DNA of 59,529 bases, the filler included, from Candidatus Desantisbacteria bacterium CG1_02_49_89 (GTDB taxonomy: Bacteria > Desantisbacteria > UBA1551), in the NCBI GenBank assembly GCA_001871075.1. It is 6 parts of 6 records of this genome, joined end to end, with 100 filler letters (N's around TTAATTAATTAA, not from the genome) between each part and the next. Parts side by side here need not be neighbours in the genome. Positions count along the whole stretch, not along the records: positions 1 to 9,901 come from MNUP01000039.1; positions 10,002 to 19,556 come from MNUP01000117.1; positions 19,657 to 28,750 come from MNUP01000113.1; 3 more parts are not named here. One strand, written 5' to 3'. The notes under the pieces were generated by a model. It did no database searches and was not told where the DNA came from. It was given only the letters and a program-made list of their open reading frames with translations. How positions within the stretch are numbered: position 1 is the stretch's first letter; every line of letters starts with the position of its first letter. The translations under genes were made by a program, and so were the position numbers. Positions 8,602 through 26,342 of this stretch are shown here, one piece after another.

Positions 8602-8643
8602 CAAGACCAAGCACTCCTTCTTCTTTTAGGCTGGTTACAGCTA

Positions 8644-9564
8644 TTAGAACTTGGCGCCTACAGTTACCCTGTGCGTATAACCCAGGTCCCCGTAAGGAAC
8701 AAGGGCGTAATCTATGCCCAAGATGCCGATCTTAAAGCCGGCACCGCAAGTTAGGCCCGCAAGCGCCCCCAGGGTATTGTTTATCGCGCTGTTATACTTG
8801 TAACCTGCCCTTATGGCAAACACAGGATGGACCCAGTATTCAATACCTGCTCCCACAGCCCATATAGAATCAAGGATGGAGTAGTTCAGGTCAGATGATA
8901 GAGTAAGCTTGCTGTCAGCAAACTTATTGGCAATGCCGACCTTCAGGTTCATAGGCAAAGGGCTTGCCTCTGTGATGAACGGGGCTTCGTAGCCCATATT
9001 CTGCAGGGCAAGGCCCATAACCAGGCCTTCCTTGTTCAGCTTGTACTGCAGACCAATATCTGCGGCCACACCAAGCGCTGACTTGTCATCTAACTGCTGG
9101 TTGATGATCTTGACTGTGCCGCCAAGGTTCAGGCGTTCTGAGAGCGTCTTAGCGTATGATACGGCTATCGCCAGGTCATTTGCAGGCACTGACCCAAGCA
9201 GAGCTCCGGCAATATCCCTTCTTTCAATGTCTGTGATATACAGGTAGGTTATACCTGCGCCTATTGTTCCGCCAAGAGCCGGCTGGCAATATGCAAGATA
9301 CTCATACCTGATAGCCTGAAACCATTCTGTATGGGTAAAGGTTACCTGCTTACCTTCTGATAGGGACAGGCCGGATGGGTTCCAGAACAGGGCATTGATA
9401 TCATCTGCAACAGCGACAAAGGCTTCGCCCATTGCAACAGGGCGAGAACCTACACCAAGTTTAAGGAAGGTGGCGCCTGTGGTTCCGGGCCCGGCGGCAA
9501 ATAAGCTCAAAGCTGAAAGTTGAAAGGTGAAAGTTAATGCAATTACAAATATAATCTTTTTCAT
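8644..9564 (-). CDS. PorV/PorQ-family outer-membrane beta-barrel
   Basis: Signal peptide, FLKLGVGSRPVAMGEAFVAVADDINALFWNPSGL, DYALVPYGDLGYTHR, terminal Phe. Confidence 0.88.
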   Translation of the reverse strand: MKKIIFVIALTFTFQLSALSLFAAGPGTTGATFLKLGVGSRPVAMGEAFVAVADDINALFWNPSGLSLSEGKQVTFTHTEWFQAIRYEYLAYCQPALGGTIGAGITYLYITDIERRDIAGALLGSVPANDLAIAVSYAKTLSERLNLGGTVKIINQQLDDKSALGVAADIGLQYKLNKEGLVMGLALQNMGYEAPFITEASPLPMNLKVGIANKFADSKLTLSSDLNYSILDSIWAVGAGIEYWVHPVFAIRAGYKYNSAINNTLGALAGLTCGAGFKIGILGIDYALVPYGDLGYTHRVTVGAKF

Positions 9565-9606
9565 TTTTCCTTCATTTTTAATTTTACATTTTTAATTGAT
9601 GCGGCA

Positions 9607-9901
9607 TCACCGTATGATCATTATCTTGCCGATCTTTCTTTCCTTCGTATCATCTGTCAGGAAGTAGATGTAGACGCCGGAAGCGACTGGCTCATTCCAA
9701 TTGTTTATAACAGTCCAGACGTATGGATCTGTAGTTATGTCTGTCTGCTCAAACACAAGCTCCCCTGCTATGTTGTATATCCTGAGCAGGACGTTCAGGG
9801 TGCTGTAGAGCTTAAAACTGATGGCAGTGTGACCCTGGGACGGCTTGAACGGTACAGGGAATGCGTAAGCATCCTTAATACTCGGCGCTGCCTTGGGCAG
9901 A
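9607..9901 (-). CDS. C-terminal fragment of a protein ending in a T9SS type-A-like/FlgD-Ig sorting domain (not in ORF track)
   Basis: Hand translation: LPKAAPSIKDAYAFPVPFKPSQGHTAISFK...LRIYNIAGELVF...WTVINNWNEPVASGVYIYFL...IGKIMIIR*; truncated by the contig end. Confidence 0.85.
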
Positions 9902-10001
9902 NNNNNNNNNNNNNNNNNNNNNNNNNNNNNNNNNNNNNNNNNNNNTTAATTAATTAANNNNNNNNNNNNNNNNNNNNNNNNNNNNNNNNNNNNNNNNNNN
10001 N
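9902..10001. other. Artificial contig spacer
   Basis: N run containing TTAATTAATTAA (stop codons in all frames). Confidence 0.99.
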
Positions 10002-11124
10002 CCCCAAGATCCTGCAGGGCGGCGTTTCTTTCGCGGATCTGCGCAGTGTGAAGCCCGAGGACCTGCTCGGGAGGGAAATGGTTGAGATCAACAGCGATGA
10101 CGCGAGGAATTTCCTGCAGAACAAGGTGATACTTGTCACGGGAGCGGGTGGTTCTATAGGTTCAGAGATATGCAGGCAGGTTTCGGGTTTCGGTCCCGCC
10201 CGCCTGATAATGCTTGACCATAATGAGAACGATGTTTATTTTATCGAAATTGACCTAAAAAGGAATTATCCCGTCCTGCAGTTCAGGACGGTTATAGGAG
10301 ATATAAAGGACCCGATGCAGCTGGAATCCGTCTTTTCCGAGCTTAAGCCGCAGGTGGTTTTTCACGCCGCCGCTCACAAGCACGTCCCGCTTCTGGAAGA
10401 AAATCCTTCAAGCGCTATCAAGAATAACGTCCTGGGCACCCTTAATCTTGTCCGCGCTTCGGAATTGCACGGGGTGGAGAGTTTTGTGCTGATCTCCACT
10501 GACAAAGCCGTAAATCCTACCAGCGTTATGGGCGCGTCAAAACGCATCGCCGAGATGATAGTCCAGGCAAAATCCAGGGGTAACCGCACTAAATTCATGG
10601 CAGTGCGTTTCGGCAACGTTATTGGTTCCAGCGGAAGCGTTGTCCAGCTTTTCAAGAAGCAGATAGAGGAAGGCGGGCCTGTAACGGTAACTGACCCGGA
10701 TGTAGTAAGGTATTTTATGACCGTGCGTGAGGCGTCCCAGCTTGTGATACAGGCGGGATCGATAGGCAGCGGGGGAGAGATCTTTATCCTGGACATGGGA
10801 GAACAGATGAGAATAGCAGATCTCGCAAGGAATCTGATAACCCTTTCGGGACTTGAGGTAGGCAAAGACATATCCATAAAATTTACGGGCCTAAGGCCAG
10901 GCGAGAAGAAATACGAAGAGCTTTTGCACGATAAAGAACGGGACAGAGCGACAAGGCACCAGAAGATCTTTATTACACAGCCTGAATCAATTGATTCAGA
11001 AAAGTTGTGGAAAGATATTGAGGAGTTTGAGCAGCTCTCGGGCAGGATGGATGATGCGGGGATCGTGAAGAAGATAAAAGAAATGATACCGATATATACG
11101 CCGGACAAGAAGTGGGGGTTGTAG
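10002..11124 (+). CDS. CapD/PglF-type nucleoside-diphosphate sugar epimerase/dehydratase (5' truncated)
   Basis: LVTGAGGSIGSE, HAAAHKHVP, ISTDKAVNP, VRFGNV, GLRPGEK; frame open from the contig start. Confidence 0.92.
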
Positions 11125-11219
11125 CGGTGCGACGTTCCGTCGCACATAAGGAGTAGAGCCTTTAGGCTCGTTAAATAACACGGGGCTAAAGCCCCTACTC
11201 CAAAATCCGACCGCTACAA
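11119..11219. repeat. Nested GTAG-type REP doublets (REPIN-like) between convergent genes
   Basis: Outer TTGTAGCGG...CCGCTACAA; inner GGAGTAGAGCCTTTAGGCTCGT...ACGGGGCTAAAGCCCCTACTCC (11150-11201). Confidence 0.75.
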
Positions 11220-11972
11220 ATGCCTTGCGGCAAATTGTACGGCATTCTTAAATATTTTTAAACCGCCTCCCTCCTCAGGTAGTTTCTCACGCTGCCAGTG
11301 AGGATGCTGGTATCTCGAAAGAAATCTTTCCGGGTGCGGCATCATACCGAAAACATTGCCTTCCTTGTTGCATATTCCCGCAATACCGTCCATTGAGCCG
11401 TTGGGATTCCATGGATAGCCCGCTTCCCTGCCTTTCCCGTCCACGTATTTAAAAACTATCCCGTCGTTTTTTTCTAATTCCTTTAGTGTTTTGGAATCGG
11501 TGACAAATTTTCCCTCGCCGTGAGCGATCGGAAGGTATATCCCTTTGATCCCGCGCGTGAATACGCATTTGTTCCTGTTTACGTTTTTTAAATATACCCA
11601 GCGGTCCTCAAATTTGCCGCTGTCATTAAATGTCAGAGTAGAGTGCGGCAGCAGGCCGGTTTTCACAAGTACCTGGAACCCGTTGCATATTCCGATGACA
11701 AGCTTTCCGCTCTGCACGAACTTCCTGATATCCTGGCGGAGCTTATAGATTAGTTCATTCGCGAGCACCTTTCCGGCTGCTATGTCATCCCCGTAAGAAA
11801 AACCGCCAGGCAGAGCAAGTATCTTGTACGGTTCCAGGTTTTTCCCGCCCTGTATGAGTTCGTTGATATGGACCAGGTCCACGTCAGCGCCCGCTGCCTG
11901 GAACGCAAAAACCGTTTCTCTGTCGCAGTTAGTCCCGGCAGTCCTTAACACGATCACCTTTGCTTTTTTCAT
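11214..11972 (-). CDS. purQ: Phosphoribosylformylglycinamidine synthase glutaminase subunit
   Basis: GTNCD, LPGGFSYGD, GICNGFQ, IAHGEG, MMPHPER. Confidence 0.96.
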   Translation of the reverse strand: MKKAKVIVLRTAGTNCDRETVFAFQAAGADVDLVHINELIQGGKNLEPYKILALPGGFSYGDDIAAGKVLANELIYKLRQDIRKFVQSGKLVIGICNGFQVLVKTGLLPHSTLTFNDSGKFEDRWVYLKNVNRNKCVFTRGIKGIYLPIAHGEGKFVTDSKTLKELEKNDGIVFKYVDGKGREAGYPWNPNGSMDGIAGICNKEGNVFGMMPHPERFLSRYQHPHWQREKLPEEGGGLKIFKNAVQFAARHL

Positions 11973-11986
11973 AATTCCATATTCCT

Positions 11987-12056
11987 GTCATTGCGAACCC
12001 GAAGGGTGAGGCAATCCCGTATTAGATTGCTTCGTCGTTTCACTCCTCGCAATGAC
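11987..12056. repeat. GTCATTGCGA...CTCGCAATGAC palindromic REP-like element
   Basis: Terminal inverted repeat GTCATTGCGA/TCGCAATGAC with internal GCAATC/GATTGC; same core as inside both MITE families. Confidence 0.85.
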
Positions 12057-12059
12057 CTG

Positions 12060-14594
12060 CTACCAGCGTAAAGTTTTCTGCCAGGCTTCCTTTAATTCAT
12101 AGATATCCGCGTTTATAATAAGCTTGCCGTTTAACCCGTAAACCTTGAAGCGTTTATCTTTTTTGACCTTTCCGATTACCGAATAAATCCCCCCGTTCCC
12201 CCCTTTAGAAAGGGGGGTTAGAGGGGATTTATTACCATTCATTATTTTCTCGAATTTTCTGCGGTTTTTCGGCTTTACTTCCGCCAGGAACCTTGAATTT
12301 GATTCTGAAAACAGTATCATATCGTTTCTTAAACTTTGACACGTTGCCTGCCCGCCAACGCTTGCTGGGCGGGACACGTTGACACGTTGACACTGTATTT
12401 CTGCTCCTAATCCTCCCGCAAAGGCCATTTCCGCGGCCGCAACAGCGAGTCCGCCTTCCGAGCAGTCGTGGCAGGAACGCACAATGCCTTCCCGGATCGC
12501 CTTCTGCAGTTTTTTCATCATTACTGCGGCTTTTCCCGGATTGACCTTAGGGACCATCCCCCCGTTTAATCCATTTACGGAATAGTAAATGGAGCCGCCC
12601 AGTTCATCATATGTCTCGCCAAGAAGGTATATCAGGTTACCCGGGGATTTCAGGTCCATTGAAACTACTTTCCCTATGTCCGGGATCACGGAAATGGCGG
12701 ATATGAGCAGGGTGGGCGGTATAGAGATCTTTTTTCCCGAATCCTGATCAAAGTATTCATTATTCAGGCTGTCCTTGCCGGATATGAAAGGCGTTCCGTA
12801 TGCTTTTGCCATGTCATAACATGCCTGCGACGCCCTTACAAGCCCTGCAAGCTGCCCGGGTTTTTCAGGGCTTCCCCAGCAGAAATTATCAAGCAGCGCG
12901 CATTTTTCCAGGCTGCCTCCCGCGCAGATATTGTTCCTGAGGGCTTCATCGATCGCGGACGCAGCCATCCAGTAGGGGTCCAGCTTTCCGTAACTTGGGT
13001 TTATCCCGTTTGATATCACGATCCCGCGGTTAGATCTGAAAAGCGGTTTAATAACGCATGCATCCCCGGGCCCGTCATTTTCTTTACCCTGAAGCGGTTT
13101 GAGCACCGTTCCTGCCTGGACTTCGTGGTCATACTGCCTTATGATCCATTCCTTGCTGGCAACAGTAGGGTGGGAGAGTATCTTTTTAAGTATTTGTTCC
13201 GGGTTCTCCGCTCCGACGCCACGTCGGAGCGAGACCTCGCCCCGACAGAGTCGGGGCGGGCGGGTTTCGGGCGCGTCCCAGACTGCTTTTCTCCTGAATC
13301 TCGGCACTCCGTCGTGCAGGAAGTCCATTTCCAGCTCGCAGACCTTCTCGCCTTTATAGAGCAGGACCAATTTTTTATCGTTTGTGAATTCACCCAGGAC
13401 CGTCGCTTCCACGTTCTCGGCTTTGAATACCGCCATTATTTCATCAAGTTTATGCGGCGGGACAGCGAGCACCATCCTTTCCTGCGCTTCAGAAACCCAG
13501 ATCTCCCAGGGGGTAAGCCCCGCGTATTTGAGAGGCGCTCTTTCAAGATAAACGCGGGCGCCTATATCTTTTCCCATTTCACCCACGGCTGACGAAAATC
13601 CTCCAGCGCCGCAGTCCGTGATCGCGTTATAAAGGTTTTTATCCCTTGCCTGAAGTATGACGTCTGTCGCTTTCTTCTCAACTATAGGATTTCCGATCTG
13701 CACTGCGCTTACCTCGGTGTCCTTGGCAAGCTCAACCGATGAAAATGTCGCGCCGTGTATCCCGTCCCTGCCTGTCCTGCCGCCTACCGCGACGATCAGG
13801 TCGCCGGGTTTCGTTTCCTTGAAACACTTGTCTTTTGGCATTATGCCCACGGTCCCGCAATAGACAAGGGGATTGCACACGAACCCGTTGTCAAAGATCA
13901 CCGCGCCGTTGGCAGTGGGAATTCCCATCCTGTTCCCGTAGTCCCTGACCCCGGCTACAACGCCCTTGCAGATCCTTTTCGGGTGCAGCACTCCCCCGGG
14001 CAGTTTTTCATGGGGGAGATCAGGAAAGCCGAAGCAAAAGATGTCGGTGTTCATAATGGGTTTTGCGCCCAGCCCCACGCCCAGTATATCCCGTATAACC
14101 CCTCCGATACCTGTTCCTGCTCCTCCGTACGGCTCAAGCGCGCTGGGGTGGTTATGCGTTTCTATCTTGAACGCGACCGCGTTGTCCCTGTCAAATTCTA
14201 TGATCCCGGCGTTGTCCTTAAAAACAGATATGCACCATTTTTTATCCAGTTCCTTAGTTGCCTTCATCACTGTCTGTTTCAGCAGATTGTCTATTATCGT
14301 CGTACGTCGTAAGTCGTTCGTCGTACGTCGTTTTTCGGTGGACCGTGGGCCGTGGACTGTGGACTGCTCCTGATATTCAATAATGCCGCGGAACGTCTTA
14401 TGCACGCAGTGCTCGCTCCAGGTCTGTGCAAGGGTTTCGAGCTCAACGTCAGTAGGGTTCCTTGCTGCTTTGCGGAAGTAGTCCATTATCGCATGCATTT
14501 CTTCAAGGTTCAGGGACAGGATGCCTTCCTTGCTTATCCGCGTCAACTCGGTGTCATCCGCGCCCAGTATGTCGATAATCTTAACGTTTTCCAT
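12060..14594 (-). CDS. purL: Phosphoribosylformylglycinamidine synthase subunit PurL (four in-frame repeat inserts)
   Basis: QTWSEHC, KIETHNHPS, TDCGAGG, SEAQERM, ISGKDS, CHDCSEGGL, FSES. Confidence 0.96.
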   Translation of the reverse strand: MENVKIIDILGADDTELTRISKEGILSLNLEEMHAIMDYFRKAARNPTDVELETLAQTWSEHCVHKTFRGIIEYQEQSTVHGPRSTEKRRTTNDLRRTTIIDNLLKQTVMKATKELDKKWCISVFKDNAGIIEFDRDNAVAFKIETHNHPSALEPYGGAGTGIGGVIRDILGVGLGAKPIMNTDIFCFGFPDLPHEKLPGGVLHPKRICKGVVAGVRDYGNRMGIPTANGAVIFDNGFVCNPLVYCGTVGIMPKDKCFKETKPGDLIVAVGGRTGRDGIHGATFSSVELAKDTEVSAVQIGNPIVEKKATDVILQARDKNLYNAITDCGAGGFSSAVGEMGKDIGARVYLERAPLKYAGLTPWEIWVSEAQERMVLAVPPHKLDEIMAVFKAENVEATVLGEFTNDKKLVLLYKGEKVCELEMDFLHDGVPRFRRKAVWDAPETRPPRLCRGEVSLRRGVGAENPEQILKKILSHPTVASKEWIIRQYDHEVQAGTVLKPLQGKENDGPGDACVIKPLFRSNRGIVISNGINPSYGKLDPYWMAASAIDEALRNNICAGGSLEKCALLDNFCWGSPEKPGQLAGLVRASQACYDMAKAYGTPFISGKDSLNNEYFDQDSGKKISIPPTLLISAISVIPDIGKVVSMDLKSPGNLIYLLGETYDELGGSIYYSVNGLNGGMVPKVNPGKAAVMMKKLQKAIREGIVRSCHDCSEGGLAVAAAEMAFAGGLGAEIQCQRVNVSRPASVGGQATCQSLRNDMILFSESNSRFLAEVKPKNRRKFEKIMNGNKSPLTPLSKGGNGGIYSVIGKVKKDKRFKVYGLNGKLIINADIYELKEAWQKTLRW

Positions 14595-14674
14595 TTTAAT
14601 TATGAATTATGAGTTATGAATTATGAATCAACGGCAAGGAATGAATTTTATGTTTCAACTTTGACACTCTGACA

Positions 14675-14729
14675 TCCGCCCCGATCAATATCGGGGCAAG
14701 ACCTCGCCCTGCCTTTGCGCAGGGCGGGC
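14675..14729. repeat. Double-hairpin micro-element
   Basis: TCCGCCCCGAT-CAAT-ATCGGGGC AAGACCT CGCCCTGC-CTTTGC-GCAGGGCG GGC. Confidence 0.8.
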
Positions 14730-14732
14730 TGG

Positions 14733-15224
14733 TCACTGTATCTTGTACTCCTGCACGACTTTGTTCGCGAGCAACCCGCGGCATATCCTTTCCACTTGTT
14801 CGGACGAAAGACCGCCCGAGATCTCGTATTTGAAGCCGGTTTTTACCGTATCTATGCCTTTTATGCCAAGGTCAACAGCTCCTTTTATAACAGTGTCCGC
14901 TACGGCATCTGTCACGCCTTTCTTATACCATACCTCTATTATCCAGCGTGTAGTGGATCCTTCGGTTTTGGAATTTGCCGACGCACGATGAACGATGAAC
15001 GATGAACGATTAATTCTGAACTGCTGGGTTATTTTATCCGCGAGCAGCTCCCCGCAGAGCAGTTTGAGTTCCGGTTCGCCGATGTTCCCTTCAATGCTGT
15101 AAAGCTGGGCGGTCCTGACCTTTTTAACGCCGGAAATGCCCAGGTCTTCGATGTCTTTTTGCACCGCGTGAGCCTGGGCGTTAAAAAATCCGGGTTTGTA
15201 GCATATTTCAACCATCCATTCCAT
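14733..15224 (-). CDS. purS: PurS-like protein with two fused PurS repeats
   Basis: Two homologous halves (VEICYKPG...LLADKITQQF and IEVWYKKG...LLANKVVQEY), directly upstream of purL. Confidence 0.8.
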   Translation of the reverse strand: MEWMVEICYKPGFFNAQAHAVQKDIEDLGISGVKKVRTAQLYSIEGNIGEPELKLLCGELLADKITQQFRINRSSFIVHRASANSKTEGSTTRWIIEVWYKKGVTDAVADTVIKGAVDLGIKGIDTVKTGFKYEISGGLSSEQVERICRGLLANKVVQEYKIQ

Positions 15225-15303
15225 CTTTTCCTCAAAGAATGATTACGGTGATTTTTTTAAAACTGATTACAGTGATATTAAAATAATCACTGTAATCATA
15301 TTT

Positions 15304-16092
15304 CTATAATTTATCTTCACGGAAGGCAGAAAGGTAGTTCGCGCAGTATTGGTCTTGCCCGAGGAGGGTTTCTGCCGCGAAAACAGCGGCCATCATGTCT
15401 TTGTCAGTGGGGTCTATGAGGGCGGCGTCCATGCCTGCGGCAAGGACCATGGTCAGGAATGTGCGGTTAATAAGCTTGCGGTTGGGAAGCCCGAAAGAGA
15501 TATTGCTCAGTCCCATGATGATCTTTACATGGAAGTTTTCCTTTATTTTCCTGATCGATTCCACGACTGTAAGGGCGTTTTTCTCGTTTGTGCTTATGGG
15601 GTGCACAAGGGGATCTATATAAAGGTTTTCCAGGGGTATTCCGGCAGCATCTACTTTGTCGATAATTTCCTTGCATATATTAATTCTATCTTCAACAGTT
15701 TCAGGCATTTCTTTCTCACCCATTGCTAAGGCTACAACCAGGGAATCGTATTTCTTTACAAGCGGCAGTATGTTGTTTAATCTCTTGGTTTCCAGGGTTA
15801 TTGAATTGACTAAAGCCTTGCCTTTATGCGCGGCAAGCCCGGCTTCAATAACTTCATGGCTCGGGCTGTCAATGCACAGGGGAACATCAATGGTTTCCTG
15901 CACGGTTTTGACCAGCCATACCATATCTTCTTTTTCTGTGTTGACGCGCACGCCTGCGTTGACGTCCAAAATTTGCGCGCCGGATTCCACCTGTTTTTTC
16001 GCCTCATCCTTTATGAACGGGGCGTTTCTTTCCTGTATTGCTTCTAGTATCGTTTTCCTGCTCGCGTTGATCCTTTCCCCGACAATAAGCAC
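15304..16092 (-). CDS. Methyltetrahydrofolate:corrinoid methyltransferase (AcsE-like pterin-binding)
   Basis: IVGERINASRK, ILDVNAG, PLCIDSP, LVNSI, YIDPLV, GLSNISFGLPNR. Confidence 0.85.
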   Translation of the reverse strand: MLIVGERINASRKTILEAIQERNAPFIKDEAKKQVESGAQILDVNAGVRVNTEKEDMVWLVKTVQETIDVPLCIDSPSHEVIEAGLAAHKGKALVNSITLETKRLNNILPLVKKYDSLVVALAMGEKEMPETVEDRINICKEIIDKVDAAGIPLENLYIDPLVHPISTNEKNALTVVESIRKIKENFHVKIIMGLSNISFGLPNRKLINRTFLTMVLAAGMDAALIDPTDKDMMAAVFAAETLLGQDQYCANYLSAFREDKL

Positions 16093-16119
16093 AAACCCTC
16101 CATTTTACCACTAAGGCAC

Positions 16120-16173
16120 TCCGCCCCGATGGACATCGGGGCGAGACTTCGCCCACCTGTAAGGATGGGCGAG
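16120..16173. repeat. Double-hairpin micro-element
   Basis: TCCGCCCCGATGGACATCGGGGCGAGACTTCGCCCACCT...GGATGGGCGAG; closely related to 46287-46338. Confidence 0.8.
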
Positions 16174-16368
16174 GAAATCACAAAAATATCTTTACAGGGA
16201 TTCAATGGGATTTAAACTACTATATTTTGCCTCTTGAATCTCTCTAAATCCCTGTGAAAAATCTTAAACAGGGACCTTGCGGGAATTTAAACTGCTGATA
16301 TCTTTTAAGCTTTTTAAGTTCTCTCCCCTAAAAGGGCCTACTTTTGGTAAGTTCCCTGTAAAATTGTT

Positions 16369-17779: not shown

Positions 17780-19513
17780 TTATTGTTTGTAGATTATAAG
17801 CTCGACACGGCGGTTCTGGGACCTGCCTGATTTGGATGTATTCGGCGCGATAGGATTGTCGGGTCCGTAACCGTTGGAGAATACCTTATCCTCAGGCACG
17901 CCTTTGGAGATCATATATTCTTTCACAGCTCCCGCGACCGCTTCGGAAATAGAGACATTTGCTTTTTTACTGCCGGTAATATCCGTGTATCCGTTTATGT
18001 TCAGGGAATGCCCCTGGTGCTTGATAAGCGCGTTTGCGATTGTATCAAGCGCTTTATACGTAGCGCTTGCCATCGTGCGCCCCTTGAAGTATGTGTCCCT
18101 GCCGAACCGTATCAAAAGTCCTTCCTGGGTATCCTTCATGTAGATCCCTTTTGCCAGGTTTTTCCCGATATCCATTTTCAGGTCCGGGTCCACGTTGGCA
18201 TAGGCTTTTATCTGTTTGAGTTTTTCCTCAAGCTGCGCGGCTTTTTCCTGTTCTGACAGCATACCGAGTTCGCCTTTCTTTATCTGCGCCTGCAGGATCT
18301 CCAGCTCGCTCCTTGTTTTCAAAAGTTCGGCTCTCAGCGCCACTGAGTCCGCGTTGACCTTTGCAAGGTCAAGTTTTGCGATGTCAAGTTCATGCGTCAT
18401 AGTGACGGAATCGGCCCTCAGTTGCTTGTTTTCCGCGTCCAGGACCTGCACGAGTTTATCCTTTGACATTTTTTCCCTTTCCACGGATTGCAGTTGTTCT
18501 TTTTTCCTGGCAAGGGTTTCACTGAAAGACGCGAGCTTCAGAAGTTCTTCGGCCTTTCTGGTTTTTGCCTCAGCTTCGACTTTTTCCTTTTCTTCCGCCG
18601 CTATCTCGGCTTTTGTCTTTCCCCACATGAAGGAGAGGGCTATGTTGTGGTTTTCCGTGACGCTTCCTTCCAGGGGTATTGTATACGCGTAATCAAGCAC
18701 AAAATACTGCAGTTTTATTGAAAATCCGAGGCTGCAGGTTTGGTTGTTTGGTACCGAAGACCAGAATACATTGAGCGGTAATATTGAGTAGCCAACCCTC
18801 AGGCCAAACCGTTCCTCGGCAAGCCATCCTTCAATTCCGGTGCGTATCTGGGGCAGGAACATGCCTGCCTGAAAGGCGCTGAGGTCTATCAGGTCAACCT
18901 GGGCGCCGATCATAACCGTGCTGAATGGCCCTATGCCGACGCCGATCCTGTATAACGGGTTAGATTTCATTTTGCCAACGCTTGACACAAGGTCCTGGGC
19001 TGTAAATCCGAGGCGGAAATACTGCGTTCTCAGCAGAGCGCCAAGGTCGCAGCCGTAACCTACGGATTCTCCGTTGTTCTGGCTTAATCCCTTAAGGTTG
19101 AACCCTACGGAAAATATATCGCCCAGGGGCACCGCCTGCGTGAATATGAATAGGTCTGTGGTTCCTTTTCCGTCTATTCCGTCCCAGCTTAAACCTGATG
19201 CGGAACGGATAACGGTCAGGGCGCCCAGGGGATGGCTGTAAGTAACATATCCCCCCCAGTAACTGAGACCGGAGCTGTGAGATGCGGATATGCCGTATCT
19301 TTCAAAAAATCCGTATCCGGCGGGGTTCCAGTAGAATGCGGATGCGTCATCTGCTATTCCGGTGAAAGCTCCGGAAAAACCTTGTGCCCTGGGACCTACA
19401 TCAATAATGTTCATGGGCAACGTGAATGAGTCTGCGGCAAGCGATGCTGTAGATAGCAGAAGGATAAAAGCGAAGAGCAGTAACAACTTAGGTCCTGCAT
19501 TTGCTCTTTTCAT
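17780..19513 (-). CDS. PorV-like beta-barrel + coiled coil + OmpA-like C-terminal domain fusion
   Basis: GPRAQGFSGAFTGIADDASAFYWNPAG; long E/K/L heptad region; GYTDITGS...GYGPDNPIAPN...NRRVEL. Confidence 0.82.
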   Translation of the reverse strand: MKRANAGPKLLLLFAFILLLSTASLAADSFTLPMNIIDVGPRAQGFSGAFTGIADDASAFYWNPAGYGFFERYGISASHSSGLSYWGGYVTYSHPLGALTVIRSASGLSWDGIDGKGTTDLFIFTQAVPLGDIFSVGFNLKGLSQNNGESVGYGCDLGALLRTQYFRLGFTAQDLVSSVGKMKSNPLYRIGVGIGPFSTVMIGAQVDLIDLSAFQAGMFLPQIRTGIEGWLAEERFGLRVGYSILPLNVFWSSVPNNQTCSLGFSIKLQYFVLDYAYTIPLEGSVTENHNIALSFMWGKTKAEIAAEEKEKVEAEAKTRKAEELLKLASFSETLARKKEQLQSVEREKMSKDKLVQVLDAENKQLRADSVTMTHELDIAKLDLAKVNADSVALRAELLKTRSELEILQAQIKKGELGMLSEQEKAAQLEEKLKQIKAYANVDPDLKMDIGKNLAKGIYMKDTQEGLLIRFGRDTYFKGRTMASATYKALDTIANALIKHQGHSLNINGYTDITGSKKANVSISEAVAGAVKEYMISKGVPEDKVFSNGYGPDNPIAPNTSKSGRSQNRRVELIIYKQ

Positions 19514-19556
19514 CTTGTGCCTCCTGGAAAATTTGTATCAAGGCTAAAGCCTTGAG

Positions 19557-19656
19557 NNNNNNNNNNNNNNNNNNNNNNNNNNNNNNNNNNNNNNNNNNNN
19601 TTAATTAATTAANNNNNNNNNNNNNNNNNNNNNNNNNNNNNNNNNNNNNNNNNNNN
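19557..19656. other. Artificial contig spacer
   Basis: N run containing TTAATTAATTAA. Confidence 0.99.
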
Positions 19657-19858
19657 CGAAGATAAGCAGTGGAAGGGGTTGCAGCTCGCAAAATGGCCCA
19701 GGTGGTTCCTGGATGGTGAGAAAAGCCCCGCAGGTCGCCTGACCTTCTATACCTGGAAACATTACAACAAGAATTCGCCGCTCCTTGAATCCGGCCTGCT
19801 GGGCCCTGTGCGGATCGTTTCTTCTGTCAAAGAAACTATCCGGATGCAGACGGATTAG
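19657..19858 (+). CDS. C-terminal fragment of a GH106/GH2-like glycoside hydrolase (not in ORF track)
   Basis: Hand translation: EDKQWKGLQLAKWPRWFLDGEKSPAGRLTFYTWKHYNKNSPLLESGLLGPVRI...*; SGLLGPV is typical of these C-termini. Confidence 0.7.
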
Positions 19859-19890
19859 ATAATACGGATGCAAACAGATTCCTTGATTTT

Positions 19891-19969
19891 GTCATTGCGA
19901 GCCGAAGCCGCGAGCTGAAACCACGAGCGAAGCGTGGTGGGCAGCGTGGCGGGCAAGCGAAGCAATCTC
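19891..19969 (+). repeat. Half REP element carrying a self-nested hairpin insert
   Basis: GTCATTGCGAGC[CGAAGCCGCGAGC[TGAAACCACGAGCGAAGCGTGGTGGGC]AGCGTGGCGGGC]AAGCGAAGCAATCTC. Confidence 0.8.
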
Positions 19970-20004
19970 AAATTATTGAGACCTTAATCAAATTATGTAT
20001 ATAC

Positions 20005-20032
20005 TTGACAAATCCAAAAATATGTATATAAT
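20005..20032 (+). promoter_or_regulatory. Sigma70 promoter of brnTA overlapped by probable antitoxin operators
   Basis: TTGACA-16-TATAAT; TATGTATATA repeated at 19994 and 20021. Confidence 0.75.
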
Positions 20033-20043
20033 AGAGATATACA

Positions 20044-20340
20044 ATGAAACTGATCCCCGAGCCTGTAAATTTCGACTGGGATAAAGGCAATCTGGCAAAA
20101 AATTGGGATAAGCACAGGGTGACCAACCTCGAGTGCGAGGAAATATTTTATAACGATCCCTTAGTCGTGAAGGCCAGGATAGAAGGGTACACCGAGGAAC
20201 GTTTCTACGCTATAGGCAAAACCGGCAGGGACCGCTTCTTGTTCGTTGTTTTTATCGTAAGAGCTGGAAAGGTCAGGATTATTTCGGCGCGCGACGCAAA
20301 CAAAAAGGAAAAGGTGATATACAATGAAAAAGGCAGATAA
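20044..20340 (+). CDS. brnT: BrnT family toxin (DUF497)
   Basis: FDWDKGNLAKNWDKHRV, EERFYAIG, VRIISARDANKKE. Confidence 0.9.
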   Translation: MKLIPEPVNFDWDKGNLAKNWDKHRVTNLECEEIFYNDPLVVKARIEGYTEERFYAIGKTGRDRFLFVVFIVRAGKVRIISARDANKKEKVIYNEKGR

Positions 20341-20623
20341 GCTGAAGAAGATACAGAAATTCAAGAACGAGGGCGAAGAAGCTGAGTTCTGGTCTTCCCG
20401 CGATTCAACCGAATTTATTGACTGGTCAAAGGCGGAACGCGCCTGCTTCCCTAATCTGCGCCCTTCATCCAGGCATATTTCAATAAGACTGCCTGAAAGC
20501 CTGCTCGCTCTCGTGAAGAGCGTGGCAAACAAAAAAGATGTTCCCTACCAGTCCCTGATAAAAACCTACATTGCCGACAAGGTAAGGGAAGACTTTGCCG
20601 GTTACAGGGCAAAAAAATCCTGA
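20324..20623 (+). CDS. brnA: BrnA/CopG-family antitoxin
   Basis: EEAEFWSSRDS, ISIRLPESLL...VPYQSLIK ribbon-helix-helix; overlaps the toxin stop. Confidence 0.88.
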   Translation: MKKADKLKKIQKFKNEGEEAEFWSSRDSTEFIDWSKAERACFPNLRPSSRHISIRLPESLLALVKSVANKKDVPYQSLIKTYIADKVREDFAGYRAKKS

Positions 20624-20639
20624 AAATCAGGCACAGTAT

Positions 20640-20764
20640 TACTGAGTTTTGCATAATACCTTGATGGCTGTCTTTGCGAGCCGAAGCCGCGAGCGAAGCG
20701 TGGCGGGCAAGCGAAGCAATCTCGTATCTGGATTGCCACACTCACTTCATTCGTTCGCAATGAC
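20640..20764 (+). mobile_element. MITE family B, left end plus palindromic core (partial)
   Basis: TACTGAGTTTTGCATAATACCTTGA matches the left end of 29273-29423; no matching right end seen. Confidence 0.65.
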
Positions 20765-20782
20765 ATTATTGGATTATTCGAT

Positions 20783-21460
20783 ATGGATAAAGTCATATAT
20801 GAATTAAACAGGTGCAACCAGCGCTCTGAAAGGATGCTTTCAGTCATAGACCTTCTGAACGCGGGCGCATGTTCAGCTGACATGGCGGCTTATATAGCCG
20901 AAGGCGTTTTCCGCGGAGCGTCCCTGCTTGTCGGCGCAAAGCCGTCAGGCGGGGGAAAGACCACTGTAATGGCAGCGTTCCTTGCTTTTGTTCCTGCGGA
21001 TACTGTTATTATACCTGTGGAAAGCGCCCAAGATATCGAAGGCCTTTCAGATAGTTCGCGTAATATTTGTTTCTTAAGCCACGAAATAGGTAGCGGTCAT
21101 TTTTACGCGTATGTTTGGGGAGAGGAGGCGCGCCTTTTCTTTTCAAGAGCCGGTTCCTGCCAGATAGCGTCCAACCTTCACGCGGATACACTTGAGCAGG
21201 CAGAAGACATAATCCTGAACCAGAACAGCGTAAAAAAAGAGGATCTTGCAAGGATAAGGTTCCTTGTTTTTCTTGAGCAGGGCAGGAGCGGCAATAAAAA
21301 ATTCTCGCGCGTCTATGAGTCAGGTGCCAATGGGCGTTCGGAGCTGTCAGAGCCGTTGACTCTGAACAAGCGTCAGCAGGAATTCAAGAAGTTTTTGCTG
21401 GACACGCAGAAGAAAGGCATTTATTTAATTGAGGAAGTCCGCTCCGCATTCCTAAAATAG
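20783..21460 (+). CDS. Small stand-alone P-loop ATPase resembling the catalytic domain of VirB11/CpaF secretion ATPases
   Basis: Walker A GAKPSGGGKTT, CFLSHEIG, SNLHADT (His-box-like). Confidence 0.6.
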   Translation: MDKVIYELNRCNQRSERMLSVIDLLNAGACSADMAAYIAEGVFRGASLLVGAKPSGGGKTTVMAAFLAFVPADTVIIPVESAQDIEGLSDSSRNICFLSHEIGSGHFYAYVWGEEARLFFSRAGSCQIASNLHADTLEQAEDIILNQNSVKKEDLARIRFLVFLEQGRSGNKKFSRVYESGANGRSELSEPLTLNKRQQEFKKFLLDTQKKGIYLIEEVRSAFLK

Positions 21461-21506
21461 GGACAGCCCCCATTTTTTATTTGCCTGATAAATAAGGATA
21501 ATAATT

Positions 21507-21959
21507 GTGTCTATAAGATTGCTTACAAAAGATGAAGGAGAAATACTTGGGGAATTCTTCACAAGCCTTTCAGAGAAGACCGTTTACTTTTTTCACCCGC
21601 ACAAGATGACGTATGAAGACGGCAGGGAACAAGCGAAAAAGATAGACAGGGGAGAGATCAGGATCTTCGGGGCTTTTCCGGAAGATGATCCCGGGAAACT
21701 GGCCGGATATATTTTCGCTACGAATGAGCCGGTTGTAAAGCTGGGTTTCTGCGTGCGCGACGAATGCCAGGGCCAGGGCGTAGGCCAGGAACTTTTAAAA
21801 TATGTCATTGATTCCTGCCGCGCTGAAGGAAGGAAGGGCATTTCCCTTGAAGTATTTAAGGACAACCCCCGCGCAATCCATGTTTATGAAAAATCAGGTT
21901 TTAAGATCTGCGGCGAAACCGATGATAAAGTACAGCACAGGATGACACTCAACTTCTGA
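21507..21959 (+). CDS. GNAT family acetyltransferase
   Basis: CQGQGVGQELL, LEVFKDNPRAIHVYEKSGF. Confidence 0.9.
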   Translation: MSIRLLTKDEGEILGEFFTSLSEKTVYFFHPHKMTYEDGREQAKKIDRGEIRIFGAFPEDDPGKLAGYIFATNEPVVKLGFCVRDECQGQGVGQELLKYVIDSCRAEGRKGISLEVFKDNPRAIHVYEKSGFKICGETDDKVQHRMTLNF

Positions 21960-22059
21960 TTTCAAATTTCAAATTGCAAATTTTAAATTGCAAATTTTCA
22001 AACTGTGTCCATCAGTGTTGATCCGTGTCAAAATTGTTTTAGCTCAAAGATGAATTTCA

Positions 22060-22087
22060 TTGACATTTCTGAAATACATGCTATAAT
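22060..22087 (+). promoter_or_regulatory. Sigma70 promoter with extended -10
   Basis: TTGACA-16-TATAAT with TG-N-TATAAT; predicted start at about 22093. Confidence 0.8.
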
Positions 22088-22092
22088 ATATA

Positions 22093-22256
22093 CATTAGTA
22101 AAATAATTAAAGGCAAATCCCGGGCAACCGGGACGCGCAAAGCCAAGGGTCCTTAAAAAATGATTACAGTGTCGCCCCTACGGCGACCCGCCGATGAGGC
22201 GGGATTTTAGCTGAGATTACAGTGATCATATAAGGGGACAGCCGGGCTGCCTGTGG
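22093..22256 (+). ncRNA. c-di-GMP-I (GEMM) riboswitch aptamer with an approximately 75-nt insertion in P3
   Basis: GGCAAA-TCCCGG-GCAA-CCGGGA-CG-CGCAAAGCCAAGGGTCCTTA ... TAAGGGGACAGCCGGGCTGCC matches the GEMM consensus on both sides of the insert. Confidence 0.85.
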
Positions 22257-22285
22257 TTGAACACCACCAGAAAAGTATAATGCGG

Positions 22286-22325
22286 CCCATCCACAGGAAC
22301 AACCTGATCGGATGGGTATTTTTTT
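22286..22325 (+). terminator. Riboswitch expression-platform terminator
   Basis: CCCATCC...GGATGGG plus TATTTTTTT; its CCACAGG (22291-22297) is complementary to the aptamer 3' CCTGTGG (22250-22256). Confidence 0.75.
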
Positions 22326-22369
22326 AACCACGGATTAACACGGATTTTCACGGATACGTACAGAAAAAG

Positions 22370-24991
22370 ATGATGAAACAAAATAGATTGCTAATTGCTG
22401 GGATAATGATGCTGGCGGTCCTTACGCTCTGCGCGGGAGAAGCGGGAGCTATGAGCGCTTTCTCCGTGGGCGGGAACGGTGAGATCTATACCTACAGGGG
22501 ATTGCTGGACCATTTCTTCCAGGAATCCGGATACACGCTTGAAAGCCGGCTTTACCTGGACAGCGAATACGGACAGTGGCTGCAGCTCGCGGAGTTCAAA
22601 ACATTTAACAGTGTTGGTACTTTGGTTAAGTACCAATCATACACCCAGGCCCAGCTCCAATCAGGGCCGATCATAATGTTGACAGACAATGAAGCGGCAA
22701 GCGGCAACTATACCGTTGAGATCCTTATTCACACCCCGCTGAAACCGCTGGGCACGCAGATACTTGACGTTGAGGGCACGATCGAGGGAACCATACAGGG
22801 TTCGGGAAATCCCGCAGGTACCATTATCGGCTGGGGAGTTAATGACTGCCCCGACTTCGCTAAGGGCAGGGAATATCCCGGCTGGTTCACGTACAGGCTG
22901 CGCCTCGGCGGATGCATATGGATAGCGCCCGCGATCCACGTGCGCAACACCAACGAAATTATCTACAGCACTGACGCGCTTGCCGGTTACGGCCTGGACG
23001 GATCATTCTATTATCCGGGCAGGGCTTTCATAGCGCGCTTGAAAGACGTGCTTGAGGACAATCCGGGTTCAACCGCTGACGATCATCCTTTTTCCTACGC
23101 CATTTTCGGCAACGACAAGATAAACGTTCTGCAGTTCACTGGAAATTCCTACACGGACAGTTATAATTCGGACATAGGCCCTTACAGCGTGAGCCGCAGC
23201 AGCTCAGGCGGAAGCATACGCAGCAATTCCTCGATACTCCTGACAGGCAACGTAGTTATAAACGGGGACGCGACACCTGGCCCCGGCGGGCAGGTGGACC
23301 TGAGCAACAACGCCAGGGTCACGGGCTCAACCGCCCCTGCAGGGAATTTCGTGAATTTCCCTCCTGTAAAAGACTTCACTTCAACTGAAAACCTTTCAAT
23401 AGCCGGGAACAGCTCACTCACTCTCAACACAGGGGCTTATTACTATAACTCGGTGAGCGTTACAGGCAATGCCGCGCTTTATATAAACGGAAAGGTCGAG
23501 ATCTACTGCGCGGGTGATTTCATCGCCGCAGGGAACGGGGTGGTGAACAATGACGGCCTGCGCGCAGGGGTCTGCTCAAACCTTTCGGTTTATGTCAGCG
23601 GTTTGAACGCGGAGATCCCGGGTAACGGGAAGTTCTTCGGCACGATTTACGCGCCCAGCGCGACTGTTGAAGTAAAGGGGAACGGCAACCTTTACGGTTC
23701 CATAATCGGCCGCAAGGTCAAGGTCAACGGCAACGCCGCCATACACTGGGACAGAGCACTTTTGAAGAAAGAGGTGCCTGGATGGTGGGACCCATACAGC
23801 AATTCATACGTAACAGCGTGGGAGGACCTGCAGTCAGTTGTAGGCAACGACCGCGACTATGATGACATCAACTACCACATTACGTTCAGCCTTGCGAATC
23901 CTGTTCCGGGCGAAGCGAAGGCGATGGTAACCACTCCGAAGAACGGCCAGACAATTGACGGGAACGCTGTCAGCATCGTCGCAGAATCCAATGAAAAAAC
24001 CTGCTCGGTGCAGTTCCAGTTCAGGGCAAAGGGCAGCGGGCCGTGGTCAGACCTGGGATTCCTTGATAACGCAATACCATATTCGGCGAAGCTTAACGCG
24101 AGTCTGCTCAGTGAGGGAGAATACGAGCTGCGCGCGATGGCTTTTGACAAGAACGGCAACTGCGAACCGGTCCCGGACTACATAACGGTGGCAGTCGCTC
24201 ACGCGGATGCCGACATACAGGAAGGAAATAACGGCGGGGTGGTCTGCAAGAAGCAGAAGGTTACAGCCGCAGAGGACTGCGATGTAACGCTTGCTGACGG
24301 GACAAAGGTATATATACCCTATAATGCACTCAGCGAACCTGCGACTTTAAGCGTGAACGTGATCAGCCAGGACAGCATCCGCGGTTCTTTGCCGAAGAGC
24401 GGGTCAGGCCTCTCGCCCATAGGGGTTTTCAGGAGTTTCTCGCTTTCCAGCGGCGAACAGGCGTTCAAGAGGAACGTGCGCATTTCCATTCCCTATCCTG
24501 ACGTGAACCGGGACGGTAAGGTTGACGGCTGCAATGTCCCGGCGGGAAAGCTGGGTATATTCTGGCTGAACGAGAAGACCGGTAAATGGGAGGAAGTATC
24601 AGCCGGCAAGCTCACAGCATCAGGGCTTGCCCAGGCAGACGCTGCGGACGGGACGCTTGAAGCAAGCGTCAGCCATTTCAGCATTTACGGATTGATGGTA
24701 AAGGGGATGGCAACAGACCTTTCTTCGGTGAAGATCGGACCAAATCCGTTCAAGCCGGCTACTGTTCCAAATATAACTTTTGACGGTATGACGAACGGCG
24801 CAACTGTTAAAATATTTAACCTTGCTGGGGAACTTGTGTTCAGCGCAGAGGACACGGATAATAACGGAATTGTAACATGGGATGGAACGAACGCTGCGGC
24901 GGAAGAGGTAGCGAGCGGCGTTTATTACTACGCGATAACCGACGCGAACGGCAACAAGCCCGCCACCGGCAAGTTCCTTCTGATACGCTAA
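22370..24991 (+). CDS. Large secreted multidomain protein with C-terminal T9SS type-A-like/FlgD-Ig domain
   Basis: Signal peptide; GN-rich beta-solenoid (IYAPSATVEVKGNGNLYGSIIG); WEDL...DRDYDD; Ig-like domain; ZU5-like domain ending SHFS; CTD GPNPFKP...KIFNLAGELV...WDG...VASGVYYY...KFLLIR. Confidence 0.85.
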   Translation: MMKQNRLLIAGIMMLAVLTLCAGEAGAMSAFSVGGNGEIYTYRGLLDHFFQESGYTLESRLYLDSEYGQWLQLAEFKTFNSVGTLVKYQSYTQAQLQSGPIIMLTDNEAASGNYTVEILIHTPLKPLGTQILDVEGTIEGTIQGSGNPAGTIIGWGVNDCPDFAKGREYPGWFTYRLRLGGCIWIAPAIHVRNTNEIIYSTDALAGYGLDGSFYYPGRAFIARLKDVLEDNPGSTADDHPFSYAIFGNDKINVLQFTGNSYTDSYNSDIGPYSVSRSSSGGSIRSNSSILLTGNVVINGDATPGPGGQVDLSNNARVTGSTAPAGNFVNFPPVKDFTSTENLSIAGNSSLTLNTGAYYYNSVSVTGNAALYINGKVEIYCAGDFIAAGNGVVNNDGLRAGVCSNLSVYVSGLNAEIPGNGKFFGTIYAPSATVEVKGNGNLYGSIIGRKVKVNGNAAIHWDRALLKKEVPGWWDPYSNSYVTAWEDLQSVVGNDRDYDDINYHITFSLANPVPGEAKAMVTTPKNGQTIDGNAVSIVAESNEKTCSVQFQFRAKGSGPWSDLGFLDNAIPYSAKLNASLLSEGEYELRAMAFDKNGNCEPVPDYITVAVAHADADIQEGNNGGVVCKKQKVTAAEDCDVTLADGTKVYIPYNALSEPATLSVNVISQDSIRGSLPKSGSGLSPIGVFRSFSLSSGEQAFKRNVRISIPYPDVNRDGKVDGCNVPAGKLGIFWLNEKTGKWEEVSAGKLTASGLAQADAADGTLEASVSHFSIYGLMVKGMATDLSSVKIGPNPFKPATVPNITFDGMTNGATVKIFNLAGELVFSAEDTDNNGIVTWDGTNAAAEEVASGVYYYAITDANGNKPATGKFLLIR

Positions 24992-25070
24992 TAAGTTCAG
25001 CCACGGATATACACGGATTAATTGGTTTTTAAACTGGACACTGGATACTGGACACTGGATACTGAAAAAA

Positions 25071-26342
25071 ATGAACAGAAAAAATTTATTTATCTTTTGG
25101 GCCATAGCATTGCTTGCCTTACACCTTACACCTTACACCTTACACGATTGCTGGGCCGGTTCAGGAAGAACCGGAGCAGCATTCTTAAAGATAGGAATTG
25201 GAGCGCGCCCGGTTGCGATGGGCGAAGCCTACGTCGGTGTGGCTGACGACATCAATTCTCTATACTGGAATCCAGCCGGGCTTTCGCTGCTTACCGGAAA
25301 GCAAGTTACTTTCACGCACAATACCTGGATGCAGGGCGTGAATTATGAGTATCTTGCCTACGGGCAGAGCCTGTGTGATCTCGGTTCCATAGGGTTCAGT
25401 ATTGCGTACCTTGGTGTTGAGCCGATGCAGATTACTAACGCCGCAGGCGTGGCAACAGGCGGCAGCGTGGACGCTTCTGATCTGATGGTAGGTGTCGCGT
25501 ACGCGAAGGCGATCGGTTCGCTTTCGATCGGCGCTACCCTGAAAGTCCTGCAGGAAAGGCTGGCTTACAATTCCGCGGTAGGTATCGGCGCGGACATCGG
25601 AATACTTAAGAAATTCGAGGGAATAGAGAATCTTGCCCTGGGAGTCAATATTCAGAATATCGGAACCCCGCTTGTTTTCATAGACCCTTTAAAGGCAAGC
25701 CTGATGCCGCTAAATATAAAGGCGGGAGGCTCATGCAAGCTCAGTGAAAATATTGTGCTTGCGCTGGATATTAACTACGCCCCGCTGGATGCAAGGTTCA
25801 GCGTTAACATCGGGACGGAGTTGTGGTGCAATAAGGTCCTGGCGCTTAGGTTCGGGTACAGGACTGGGCAGTTATCCGATATTGACGCGCTTGCAGGGAT
25901 TACAGCCGGGTTCGGGTTCAGGTGGGAGGGGTGCGGGATTGACTATGCTTTCGTCCCGTACGGAAACATGGGCCAGACGCACAGGATATCACTGGTTGCT
26001 GAGTTCGGATCTGCGATAAAACTCGCGGAAAACAGCAGGATGCAGATGGCAACTCCGCGTGTGAAAGCGGACGTGAAGGGTAAGAAGGTGCTCCTGTTCT
26101 GGGCTCCAAGCGAGGAAGAAAACGTCGCGGGTTACAAGATATACGTCAGGAAAAGCCTGGAAGAAAATTACAGGTGGATAGGCGTGAAGCCGGTAAGCGA
26201 AGCGCACTATGTTTTTAACGCTGAGCCGGGCACAACATATTATATCGTGGTTACCGCGTTCAGTACAGATTATCCCACCATTGAGACCCCGTTCACGAAC
26301 GAGATAAGCGTCACGCCGGCGGATGTGCTGGCTTTAAAATAA
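25071..26342 (+). CDS. PorV/PorQ-family beta-barrel with C-terminal fibronectin type III domain
   Basis: FLKIGIGARPVAMGEAYVGVADDINSLYWNPAGL, DYAFVPYG; C-terminal LFWAPS...VAGYKIY...PGTTYYIVVTAF. Confidence 0.87.
   Translation: MNRKNLFIFWAIALLALHLTPYTLHDCWAGSGRTGAAFLKIGIGARPVAMGEAYVGVADDINSLYWNPAGLSLLTGKQVTFTHNTWMQGVNYEYLAYGQSLCDLGSIGFSIAYLGVEPMQITNAAGVATGGSVDASDLMVGVAYAKAIGSLSIGATLKVLQERLAYNSAVGIGADIGILKKFEGIENLALGVNIQNIGTPLVFIDPLKASLMPLNIKAGGSCKLSENIVLALDINYAPLDARFSVNIGTELWCNKVLALRFGYRTGQLSDIDALAGITAGFGFRWEGCGIDYAFVPYGNMGQTHRISLVAEFGSAIKLAENSRMQMATPRVKADVKGKKVLLFWAPSEEENVAGYKIYVRKSLEENYRWIGVKPVSEAHYVFNAEPGTTYYIVVTAFSTDYPTIETPFTNEISVTPADVLALK

Follow-up and report, generated by a model that had tools for sequence, protein, structure and literature searches.

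The 59,529-nt stretch of DNA analysed here (the window) carries two gene pairs in which a gene for a protein ending in a C-terminal domain (CTD) of the kind known from type 9 secretion systems (T9SS) is followed directly, on the same strand, by a gene for an outer-membrane β-barrel of the PorV/PorQ family. It is probable, though with considerable room for doubt, that each of these cargo proteins has its own CTD-binding carrier or anchor barrel of the PorV/PorQ type. Six contigs make up the window (1-9901, 10002-19556, 19657-28750, 28851-41327, 41428-50168, and 50269-59529), as delimited by the N spacers between them (9902-10001, 19557-19656, 28751-28850, 41328-41427, and 50169-50268), which have the form N44-TTAATTAATTAA-N44. 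The features studied are found at the end of contig 1, on all of contig 2, and on most of contig 3. Since the spacers separate the contigs, the three barrel genes described below are not shown to be linked, and genes on separate contigs are not shown to be neighbours.

Pair 1 is found on the minus strand of contig 1. Its cargo gene is cut by the contig end at 9901, the N run starting at 9902, and the last 97 residues are in view (9607-9900); they hold the 3' end of the gene with a complete T9SS type-A-like CTD. The barrel gene, encoding a PorV/PorQ-family outer-membrane β-barrel of 306 aa, lies 42 nt downstream (8644-9564). Pair 2 is found on the plus strand of contig 3, where the cargo gene (22370-24991) encodes a putative secreted protein of 873 aa, the N-terminus of which looks like a signal peptide when judged by eye. 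This cargo has a DUF7305 region at residues 346-464 (Pfam, 64.1 bits), and its CTD comprises residues ~782-873 (nt ~24713-24988), as a local CTD profile, built from the two window CTDs and 28 CTDs from the related loci described below, matches residues 782-873. An ESM Atlas search with the 873-aa cargo yielded no usable match. The barrel gene lies 79 nt downstream (25071-26342) and encodes 423 aa, with the barrel portion at residues ~34-312 and a C-terminal fn3 domain at residues 332-400, the latter scoring 22.6 bits, which is just below the Pfam cutoff of 25. When it comes to transcription, we infer co-transcription of the genes within a pair from how little DNA separates them and from the lack of a terminator-like site in between. 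A promoter and terminator scan found no such site between the genes of pair 2, but this says little because the region as a whole had none while about two were expected.

The two CTDs share 40% identity (E 2e-12), and the two barrels share 47% identity over the barrel (E 2e-82). Both barrels belong to the PorV/PorQ family model NF033709 (cutoff 90 bits), scoring 201.9 bits in pair 1 and 192.3 bits in pair 2. Neither reaches the cutoff of an equivalog model: the barrel of pair 1 scores 100.5 bits for PorV (NF033710, cutoff 250), 138.5 for PorQ (NF033711, cutoff 220), and 77.7 for PorV2 (NF052325, cutoff 325), and the corresponding scores in pair 2 are 78.3, 117.6, and 74.0 bits. For both barrels the PorQ model thus outscores the PorV model. 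Both CTDs match the type A model TIGR04183 (cutoff 23 bits) at the extreme C-terminus of the protein, with 27.9 bits for CTD 1 and 26.7 bits for CTD 2, and both pass Pfam CHU_C (29.1 and 36.2 bits; cutoff 27), while Pfam Por_Secre_tail gives 19.6 and 21.2 bits and stays under its cutoff of 27. They are termed type-A-like here. Each CTD matches the C-terminal part of the PorZ model best (38.2 bits for CTD 1 and 65.7 bits for CTD 2). The type B model TIGR04131 (cutoff 35 bits) has no match at E<=0.01 in the window CTDs, and gives only weak matches, of 18.9 and 16.9 bits, in two of the related loci. Searched over the 54 open reading frames (ORFs) of the window, the local CTD profile finds only these two CTD proteins, each directly upstream of one of the only two family-level barrels. 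The claim of the sequence-only reading that a CTD gene directly precedes a PorV-family barrel on two contigs is thus borne out, with both genes of each pair passing their family models.

The structure of the barrel of pair 1 was modelled using AlphaFold2 (AF2), with a predicted local distance difference test score (pLDDT) of 82.5 and a predicted template modelling score (pTM) of 0.79. The top matches of this model in the Protein Data Bank (PDB) are PorV structures, namely 8gl6_F (E 5e-15, template modelling score by query, TMq, 0.77) and 6h3i_F (TMq 0.75); TodX, TbuX, and FadL rank behind PorV. Searched against PDB sequences, the barrel profile finds PorV only (E 3.6e-30). The CTD profile finds the PorZ CTD (5m11, E 2.5e-16) and the PorU CTD (6za2, E 2.8e-9), followed by two Flavobacterium substrate CTDs.

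To see how far the arrangement extends, related loci are informative. An alignment of the two window barrels and 16 hand-picked matches was used to scan one genome per GTDB species, and the adjacency figures rest on the best 80 loci of 501 confirmed relatives. By label, 30 of the 80 loci belong to Elusimicrobiota or its classes, one to Desantisbacteria, and 16 to groups of the Fibrobacteres-Chlorobi-Bacteroidetes (FCB) type, the rest being from other candidate phyla or unlabelled. Five loci have no upstream ORF in view and in one the ORF ran off the locus, leaving 74 upstream ORFs that could be scored. Using NCBIfam models on the last 130 residues, 42/74 have a T9SS-CTD-type match at E<=0.01, and 28/74 reach the TIGR04183 cutoff. 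The local CTD profile recovers the same 42/74 upstream ORFs as compared to 24/622 of the other ORFs (odds ratio 32.7, Fisher p 3e-30), or 24/462 when the other ORFs are limited to those of at least 150 aa. Of the 24 control matches, four lie ahead of a further barrel paralog, and another four are additional CTD genes immediately preceding a CTD-barrel pair. According to a hand tally of titles, the CTD neighbour is found in 22/29 loci labelled Elusimicrobiota, 4/14 labelled FCB, 4/10 from other candidate phyla, and 12/21 of the rest. Several metagenome-assembled genomes (MAGs) account for two or more loci, or have two barrels in a single locus. CTD-barrel adjacency is general across the related uncultured lineages, and the count of it, which had been proposed as a check when the pairs were first noticed, shows strong enrichment.

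The passengers carried by these CTDs are diverse. A Pfam scan covered 40 of the 42 CTD-bearing upstream proteins, two short fragments being excluded, and identified enzymes (two S8 subtilases, a GH113 glycosidase, and an M6 peptidase) as well as PQQ, NHL, and Kelch propellers, F5/8 type C domains, CarboxypepD_reg arrays, Big_5, and fn3. The largest cargo is 2640 aa. The possibility that the upstream proteins of FCB-type loci are PorU or PorZ was considered and rejected, as six of them, scanned at full length, returned no family at E<=1e-8; PorU, PorZ, and SprA are likewise not found among the upstream cargo proteins scanned. In an all-against-all BLAST of the ORFs of these loci, no other neighbour family exceeded 8/80 loci, and hence no conserved third gene was seen. 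Because the passengers are diverse and no neighbour family recurs, the conserved element is the CTD beside the barrel, not a passenger or a third component. Among the barrels of these loci 27 are longer, with TPR in five, fn3 in two, and OmpA, LysM, and CarboxypepD_reg in one each, and a LysM protein is encoded just downstream of the barrel in six loci.

Some of the loci have a different or more elaborate layout. L017, L030, L032, L043, L062, and one more locus share a conserved cassette of three genes, the first for a CTD protein of ~700 aa that has SBBP or delta-60 repeats, the second for a barrel of ~385 aa, and the third, which overlaps, for a ~200-aa protein whose C-terminus gives a LysM-type match; this sub-lineage is labelled Elusimicrobia or Elusimicrobiales where the MAG has a label. 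L002, L003, and L056, which come from MAGs labelled Clostridia or unlabelled, have a Crp/Fnr-type regulator upstream of the barrel, and in L002 and L056 the CTD protein sits downstream of the barrel instead. The label Clostridia is odd for MAGs bearing an outer-membrane barrel.

The interaction between CTD and barrel was modelled using residues 24-306 of the barrel of pair 1 and the 97-aa CTD of its neighbour, with an alignment supplied for each. This cognate complex scored 0.93, 0.93, and 0.92, as compared to 0.00 for the best of three controls, with a partner pLDDT of 92 and a contact agreement of at least 98%; the mark applied is passed by 116/157 solved complexes and by 2/215 mismatched pairs. 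The predicted interface, which had also been among the proposed checks, involves the N-terminal segment 24-36 and loop regions of the barrel, and the conserved Pro-rich, AGELV, ASGVY, and C-terminal strands of the CTD. The interface residues of the CTD are more conserved than the rest of the domain (2.31 vs 1.48 bits, p 3e-5). The model would support binding of the CTD to the barrel, unless its score stems from similarity to the PorV-CTD complexes already solved.

Most likely, each pair would then constitute a two-gene unit. The upstream gene would encode a Sec-exported surface protein, the last ~90 residues of which would fold as a T9SS type-A-like β-sandwich, and the downstream gene would encode the cargo's own outer-membrane barrel, of the PorV/PorQ family and 14-strand type. 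The N-terminal segment and the extracellular loops of the barrel would dock onto the conserved CTD face. The barrel would be a carrier reserved for its neighbour, and probably also its permanent anchor in the membrane, and not one shuttle common to all cargo. Periplasmic barrel extensions (fn3 here, OmpA in the third paralog of the window, and TPR, LysM, and OmpA in relatives) would link the complex to peptidoglycan or to partners in the periplasm. A separate translocon, encoded outside the window, would be needed. A role as carrier and anchor is favoured because it combines a barrel of the PorV/PorQ type, a CTD like those of PorZ and PorU, one barrel per cargo, and periplasmic add-ons. That PorV-type barrels are dedicated to their substrates, as the sequence-only reading had proposed, is upheld at the level of genomics and modelling by the adjacency enrichment, the diverse passengers, the paralogs within single MAGs, and the predicted interface.

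Several points weigh against dedicated carriers and anchors. No CTD is found in 32/74 of the upstream neighbours, and the FCB-labelled loci with a CTD neighbour are few (4/14). The ORFs were called by a crude longest-ORF script, and the CTD profile is circular for the 42 matches; the control rate is approximate because the ORF set is crude and the profile was derived from upstream neighbours. In pair 1 the passenger lies beyond the contig end. On the barrel side the interface does not stand out in conservation (2.78 vs 2.73 bits for the remaining residues, p 0.30), and the conservation on the CTD side may partly stem from the core of the fold. Since PorV-CTD complexes have been solved (8gl6 and related entries), the high complex score may stem from resemblance to these structures rather than from binding by this particular copy. 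When it comes to specificity, the complex prediction covers one cognate pair. The data furthermore bear on gene order, fold, and adjacency, and not on retention of the CTD or on how the outer membrane is crossed.

The host lineage matters when the alternatives are weighed. The closest named homologues of the barrel of pair 1 are two proteins of one Candidatus Desantisbacteria MAG (86-87% identity), which therefore holds at least two close copies of it, and the next ones are Elusimicrobiota entries named 'PorV/PorQ family protein' (~40-43% identity). The NCBI taxonomy places Desantisbacteria among the candidate phyla, outside FCB, and according to an excerpt of one paper it is sibling to Elusimicrobia within the Planctomycetes-Verrucomicrobia-Chlamydiae (PVC) group. 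Judged by the nearest named relatives, the conclusion that the organism belongs neither to Bacteroidota nor to FCB is supported, in agreement with the earlier impression that its gene content does not look like that of Bacteroidota. The remaining genes of the window would suit an anaerobe, as they include a methyltetrahydrofolate (methyl-THF):corrinoid methyltransferase, a hexulose-phosphate synthase fusion, and radical S-adenosylmethionine (SAM) enzymes.

The alternative that survives best, although we consider it rather unlikely, is a canonical T9SS with extra PorV paralogs. The barrels would then be interchangeable shuttles that deliver their cargo to PorU, where the CTD would be removed and a lipid attached, the genome would encode SprA, motor and ring proteins of the GldKLMN type, and a PorU sortase, and the adjacency would reflect co-expression only. 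Indeed, both the CTDs and the barrels belong to T9SS families, and the barrel family is also found in FCB-labelled MAGs (Gemmatimonadota, Ignavibacteria, Eiseniibacteriota, and one Bacteroidetes), where a T9SS is expected. The known mechanism is compatible with such shuttles; as described in an excerpt of PMC10994853, the CTD in Flavobacterium binds loops by which PorV extends into the pore of SprA, and the cargo exits bound to PorV. However, SprA, GldK/L/M/N, and PorU were not found by general Pfam and NCBIfam scans of the 54 ORFs of the window (57 kb), nor were SprA, PorU, PorZ, and GldK/L/M/N found by NCBIfam among 20 neighbour proteins of the related loci (15 large or recurrent ones and five cluster representatives, including choice-of-anchor B proteins, a TonB-dependent receptor, a LysM protein, and response regulators), an argument that is weak as these are partial genomes. 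The T9SS genes are moreover stated, in the part of PMC11285876 available, to be absent outside FCB, and species without a T9SS to lack CTD proteins as well. Neither barrel reaches an equivalog cutoff, and adjacency is higher in the Elusimicrobiota-labelled than in the FCB-labelled loci, both of which fit poorly with shuttles of a canonical system.

It is very unlikely that the barrel, unaided by other T9SS parts, itself transports its neighbour through the outer membrane in a minimal or two-partner-like manner. The strict two-gene cassette, the lack of any other conserved neighbour, and a lineage outside the phyla that are reported, in the same excerpt, to have a T9SS would fit such autonomous export. 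In two-partner secretion, the transporter is a 16-strand barrel of the Omp85 type that has POTRA domains, and the cargo bears a TPS domain. Neither is seen here: in Pfam and NCBIfam scans the barrels matched no POTRA, Omp85, or ShlB family, and the 873-aa cargo showed no TPS domain. The fold is that of PorV and FadL, an N-terminal segment lying within or on top of the barrel, and the two-partner transporter CdiB (6wil) ranks only 24th among the structural matches of barrel 1 (TMq 0.42). The cargoes are also large, the longest being the 2640-aa protein mentioned above, and PorV in Flavobacterium is a carrier and not a pore, according to the text seen of PMC10994853. A barrel of the PorV/FadL type that has no POTRA domains is unlikely to serve as the channel; the two-partner-like reading is accordingly rated low, and the suggestion in the sequence-only reading of a minimal secretion system of this kind is not sustained. 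Hardly credible, finally, is that the barrels are FadL-type importers of hydrophobic small molecules lying beside unrelated CTD genes, for although Pfam gives weak matches to Toluene_X and UPF0164 and the FadL, TodX, and TbuX structures rank just behind PorV, the adjacency enrichment (42/74 vs 24/622), the wide margins by which the PorV/PorQ family model is passed, PorV as the sole PDB match at the sequence level, and the predicted CTD interface (0.93 vs 0.00) all speak against it.

By analogy, the closest precedents for dedicated carriers and anchors are PorQ-PorZ and, for type B cargo, the PorP-like carriers. In Flavobacterium, sprF-like genes adjoin their cargo genes. In the attachment complex of Porphyromonas gingivalis, a barrel of the PorV/PorQ family holds a surface protein whose type A CTD is retained there: PorQ anchors PorZ and PorV anchors PorU (excerpt of PMC5562754), and the CTDs of PorZ and PorU stay uncleaved after secretion (excerpt of PMC11285876). 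This resembles the pairs described here, since the window CTDs match those of PorZ and PorU best and the barrels score higher for PorQ than for PorV. The window cargoes, however, match the PorZ and PorU models at their C-termini only and the passengers are diverse, while the genes for barrel and cargo are adjacent, occur in several copies, and are found in a lineage outside FCB, with the PorQ and PorV equivalog cutoffs missed.

The type B systems with PorP/SprF barrels (SprB-SprF and PG1035-PorP-PorE) have in common with the window pairs that there is one barrel per cargo and that the barrel anchors it. As far as the excerpts of PMC10994853 and PMC9143113 go, type B cargo uses other carrier proteins, which then anchor it, and PorP-like barrels bind such cargo, PorP also binding the periplasmic PorE. 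While PorE thereby links PorP to the periplasm, OmpA, LysM, and TPR modules are fused to or encoded beside the barrels here. The barrel family is nevertheless different, as the PorP/SprF family models of Pfam and NCBIfam have no match at E<=0.01 in the three window barrels, and the window CTDs pass TIGR04183 with nothing on TIGR04131, though CHU_C is passed. Flavobacterium johnsoniae PorV (6H3I and 8GL6) is similar in its fold and in the predicted grip of extracellular loops on the CTD. The identity to it is only ~20%, and it is one shared protein, in contrast to the multiple copies found here with one cargo gene beside each and no SprA partner seen in the window.

The CTD and the PorV/PorQ barrel might even form a self-standing surface-display module that would be common across Elusimicrobiota, Desantisbacteria, and nearby candidate phyla in which SprA, GldKLMN, and PorU are absent, although we regard this as doubtful. 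If it were true, the sorting tag and its carrier would exist apart from the translocon and motor of Bacteroidota, with a different route out of the outer membrane. A CTD tag and a PorV/PorQ-type barrel in a Desantisbacteria-like genome contrast with the restriction to FCB stated in the excerpt of PMC11285876. This raises the questions of whether type 9 secretion extends beyond FCB or the tag and carrier work without the known translocon, and of whether dedicated carriers came earlier than the shared PorV shuttle. The rule that a CTD gene accompanies a barrel also predicts surface proteins, such as proteases, glycosidases, and adhesin-like proteins, in uncultured phyla. The parts are not new, because public records automatically name such proteins 'PorV/PorQ family protein'; what is new is the arrangement and its taxonomic spread. 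In the literature searched, with subscription journals and closed supplements outside its scope, nothing was found in print on the CTD-barrel arrangement, and only reference-list or unrelated mentions tie T9SS parts to Elusimicrobia, Elusimicrobiota, Omnitrophota, or Desantisbacteria.

The third barrel protein of the window, which the sequence-only reading had taken for a further PorV paralog, is encoded on the minus strand of contig 2 (17780-19513) and has 577 aa. It is a distant PorV/FadL-like barrel followed by a helix and an OmpA domain. Its AF2 model (pLDDT 73.9) displays a barrel at ~73-297, a long helix of ~150 residues at 301-452, and an OmpA-like peptidoglycan-binding domain at 458-576. 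The top barrel match in the PDB is PorV 8gl6_F (E 2e-10, template modelling score by target, TMt, 0.54), the OmpA part matches 6jfw_A, and the local barrel profile gives 63.5 bits (E 1e-18). The PorV-like barrel fold thus stands, but membership in the family does not, as the protein scores 56.4 bits for NF033709, below the cutoff of 90. The OmpA domain scores 54.7 bits in Pfam. It has few close relatives (61, 49, and 42% identity). The start codon lies 43 nt from the contig end, so whatever precedes this gene is missing from the contig. An identical 577-aa protein is recorded in a protein collection on a contig of 77,313 bases, and a longer assembly of the same or a very close genome therefore exists.

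Directly after pair 2, the region 26598-28750 encodes a 629-aa protein with Big_1, DUF6531, and RHS/YD repeats, followed by a fragment of an IS630-type transposase that runs into the contig end. The GC content of this region is ~0.39-0.41 as compared to ~0.5 elsewhere, and it may be a truncated RHS-type locus beside an insertion sequence. On contig 2, the gene at 16369-17697 encodes a 442-aa fusion of hexulose-6-phosphate synthase and an RraA-like part (NF005442, 616 bits; cutoff 593), and it adjoins a gene of the methyl-THF:corrinoid methyltransferase type (15304-16092). The PurS gene at 14733-15224 encodes 163 aa, about twice the usual length, and two stretches of the protein match the PurS model. 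A 789-aa protein encoded at 34585-36954 has spermidine-synthase-like regions and a weak match to NF037959, the fused MFS/spermidine synthase model (45.8 bits; cutoff 40).

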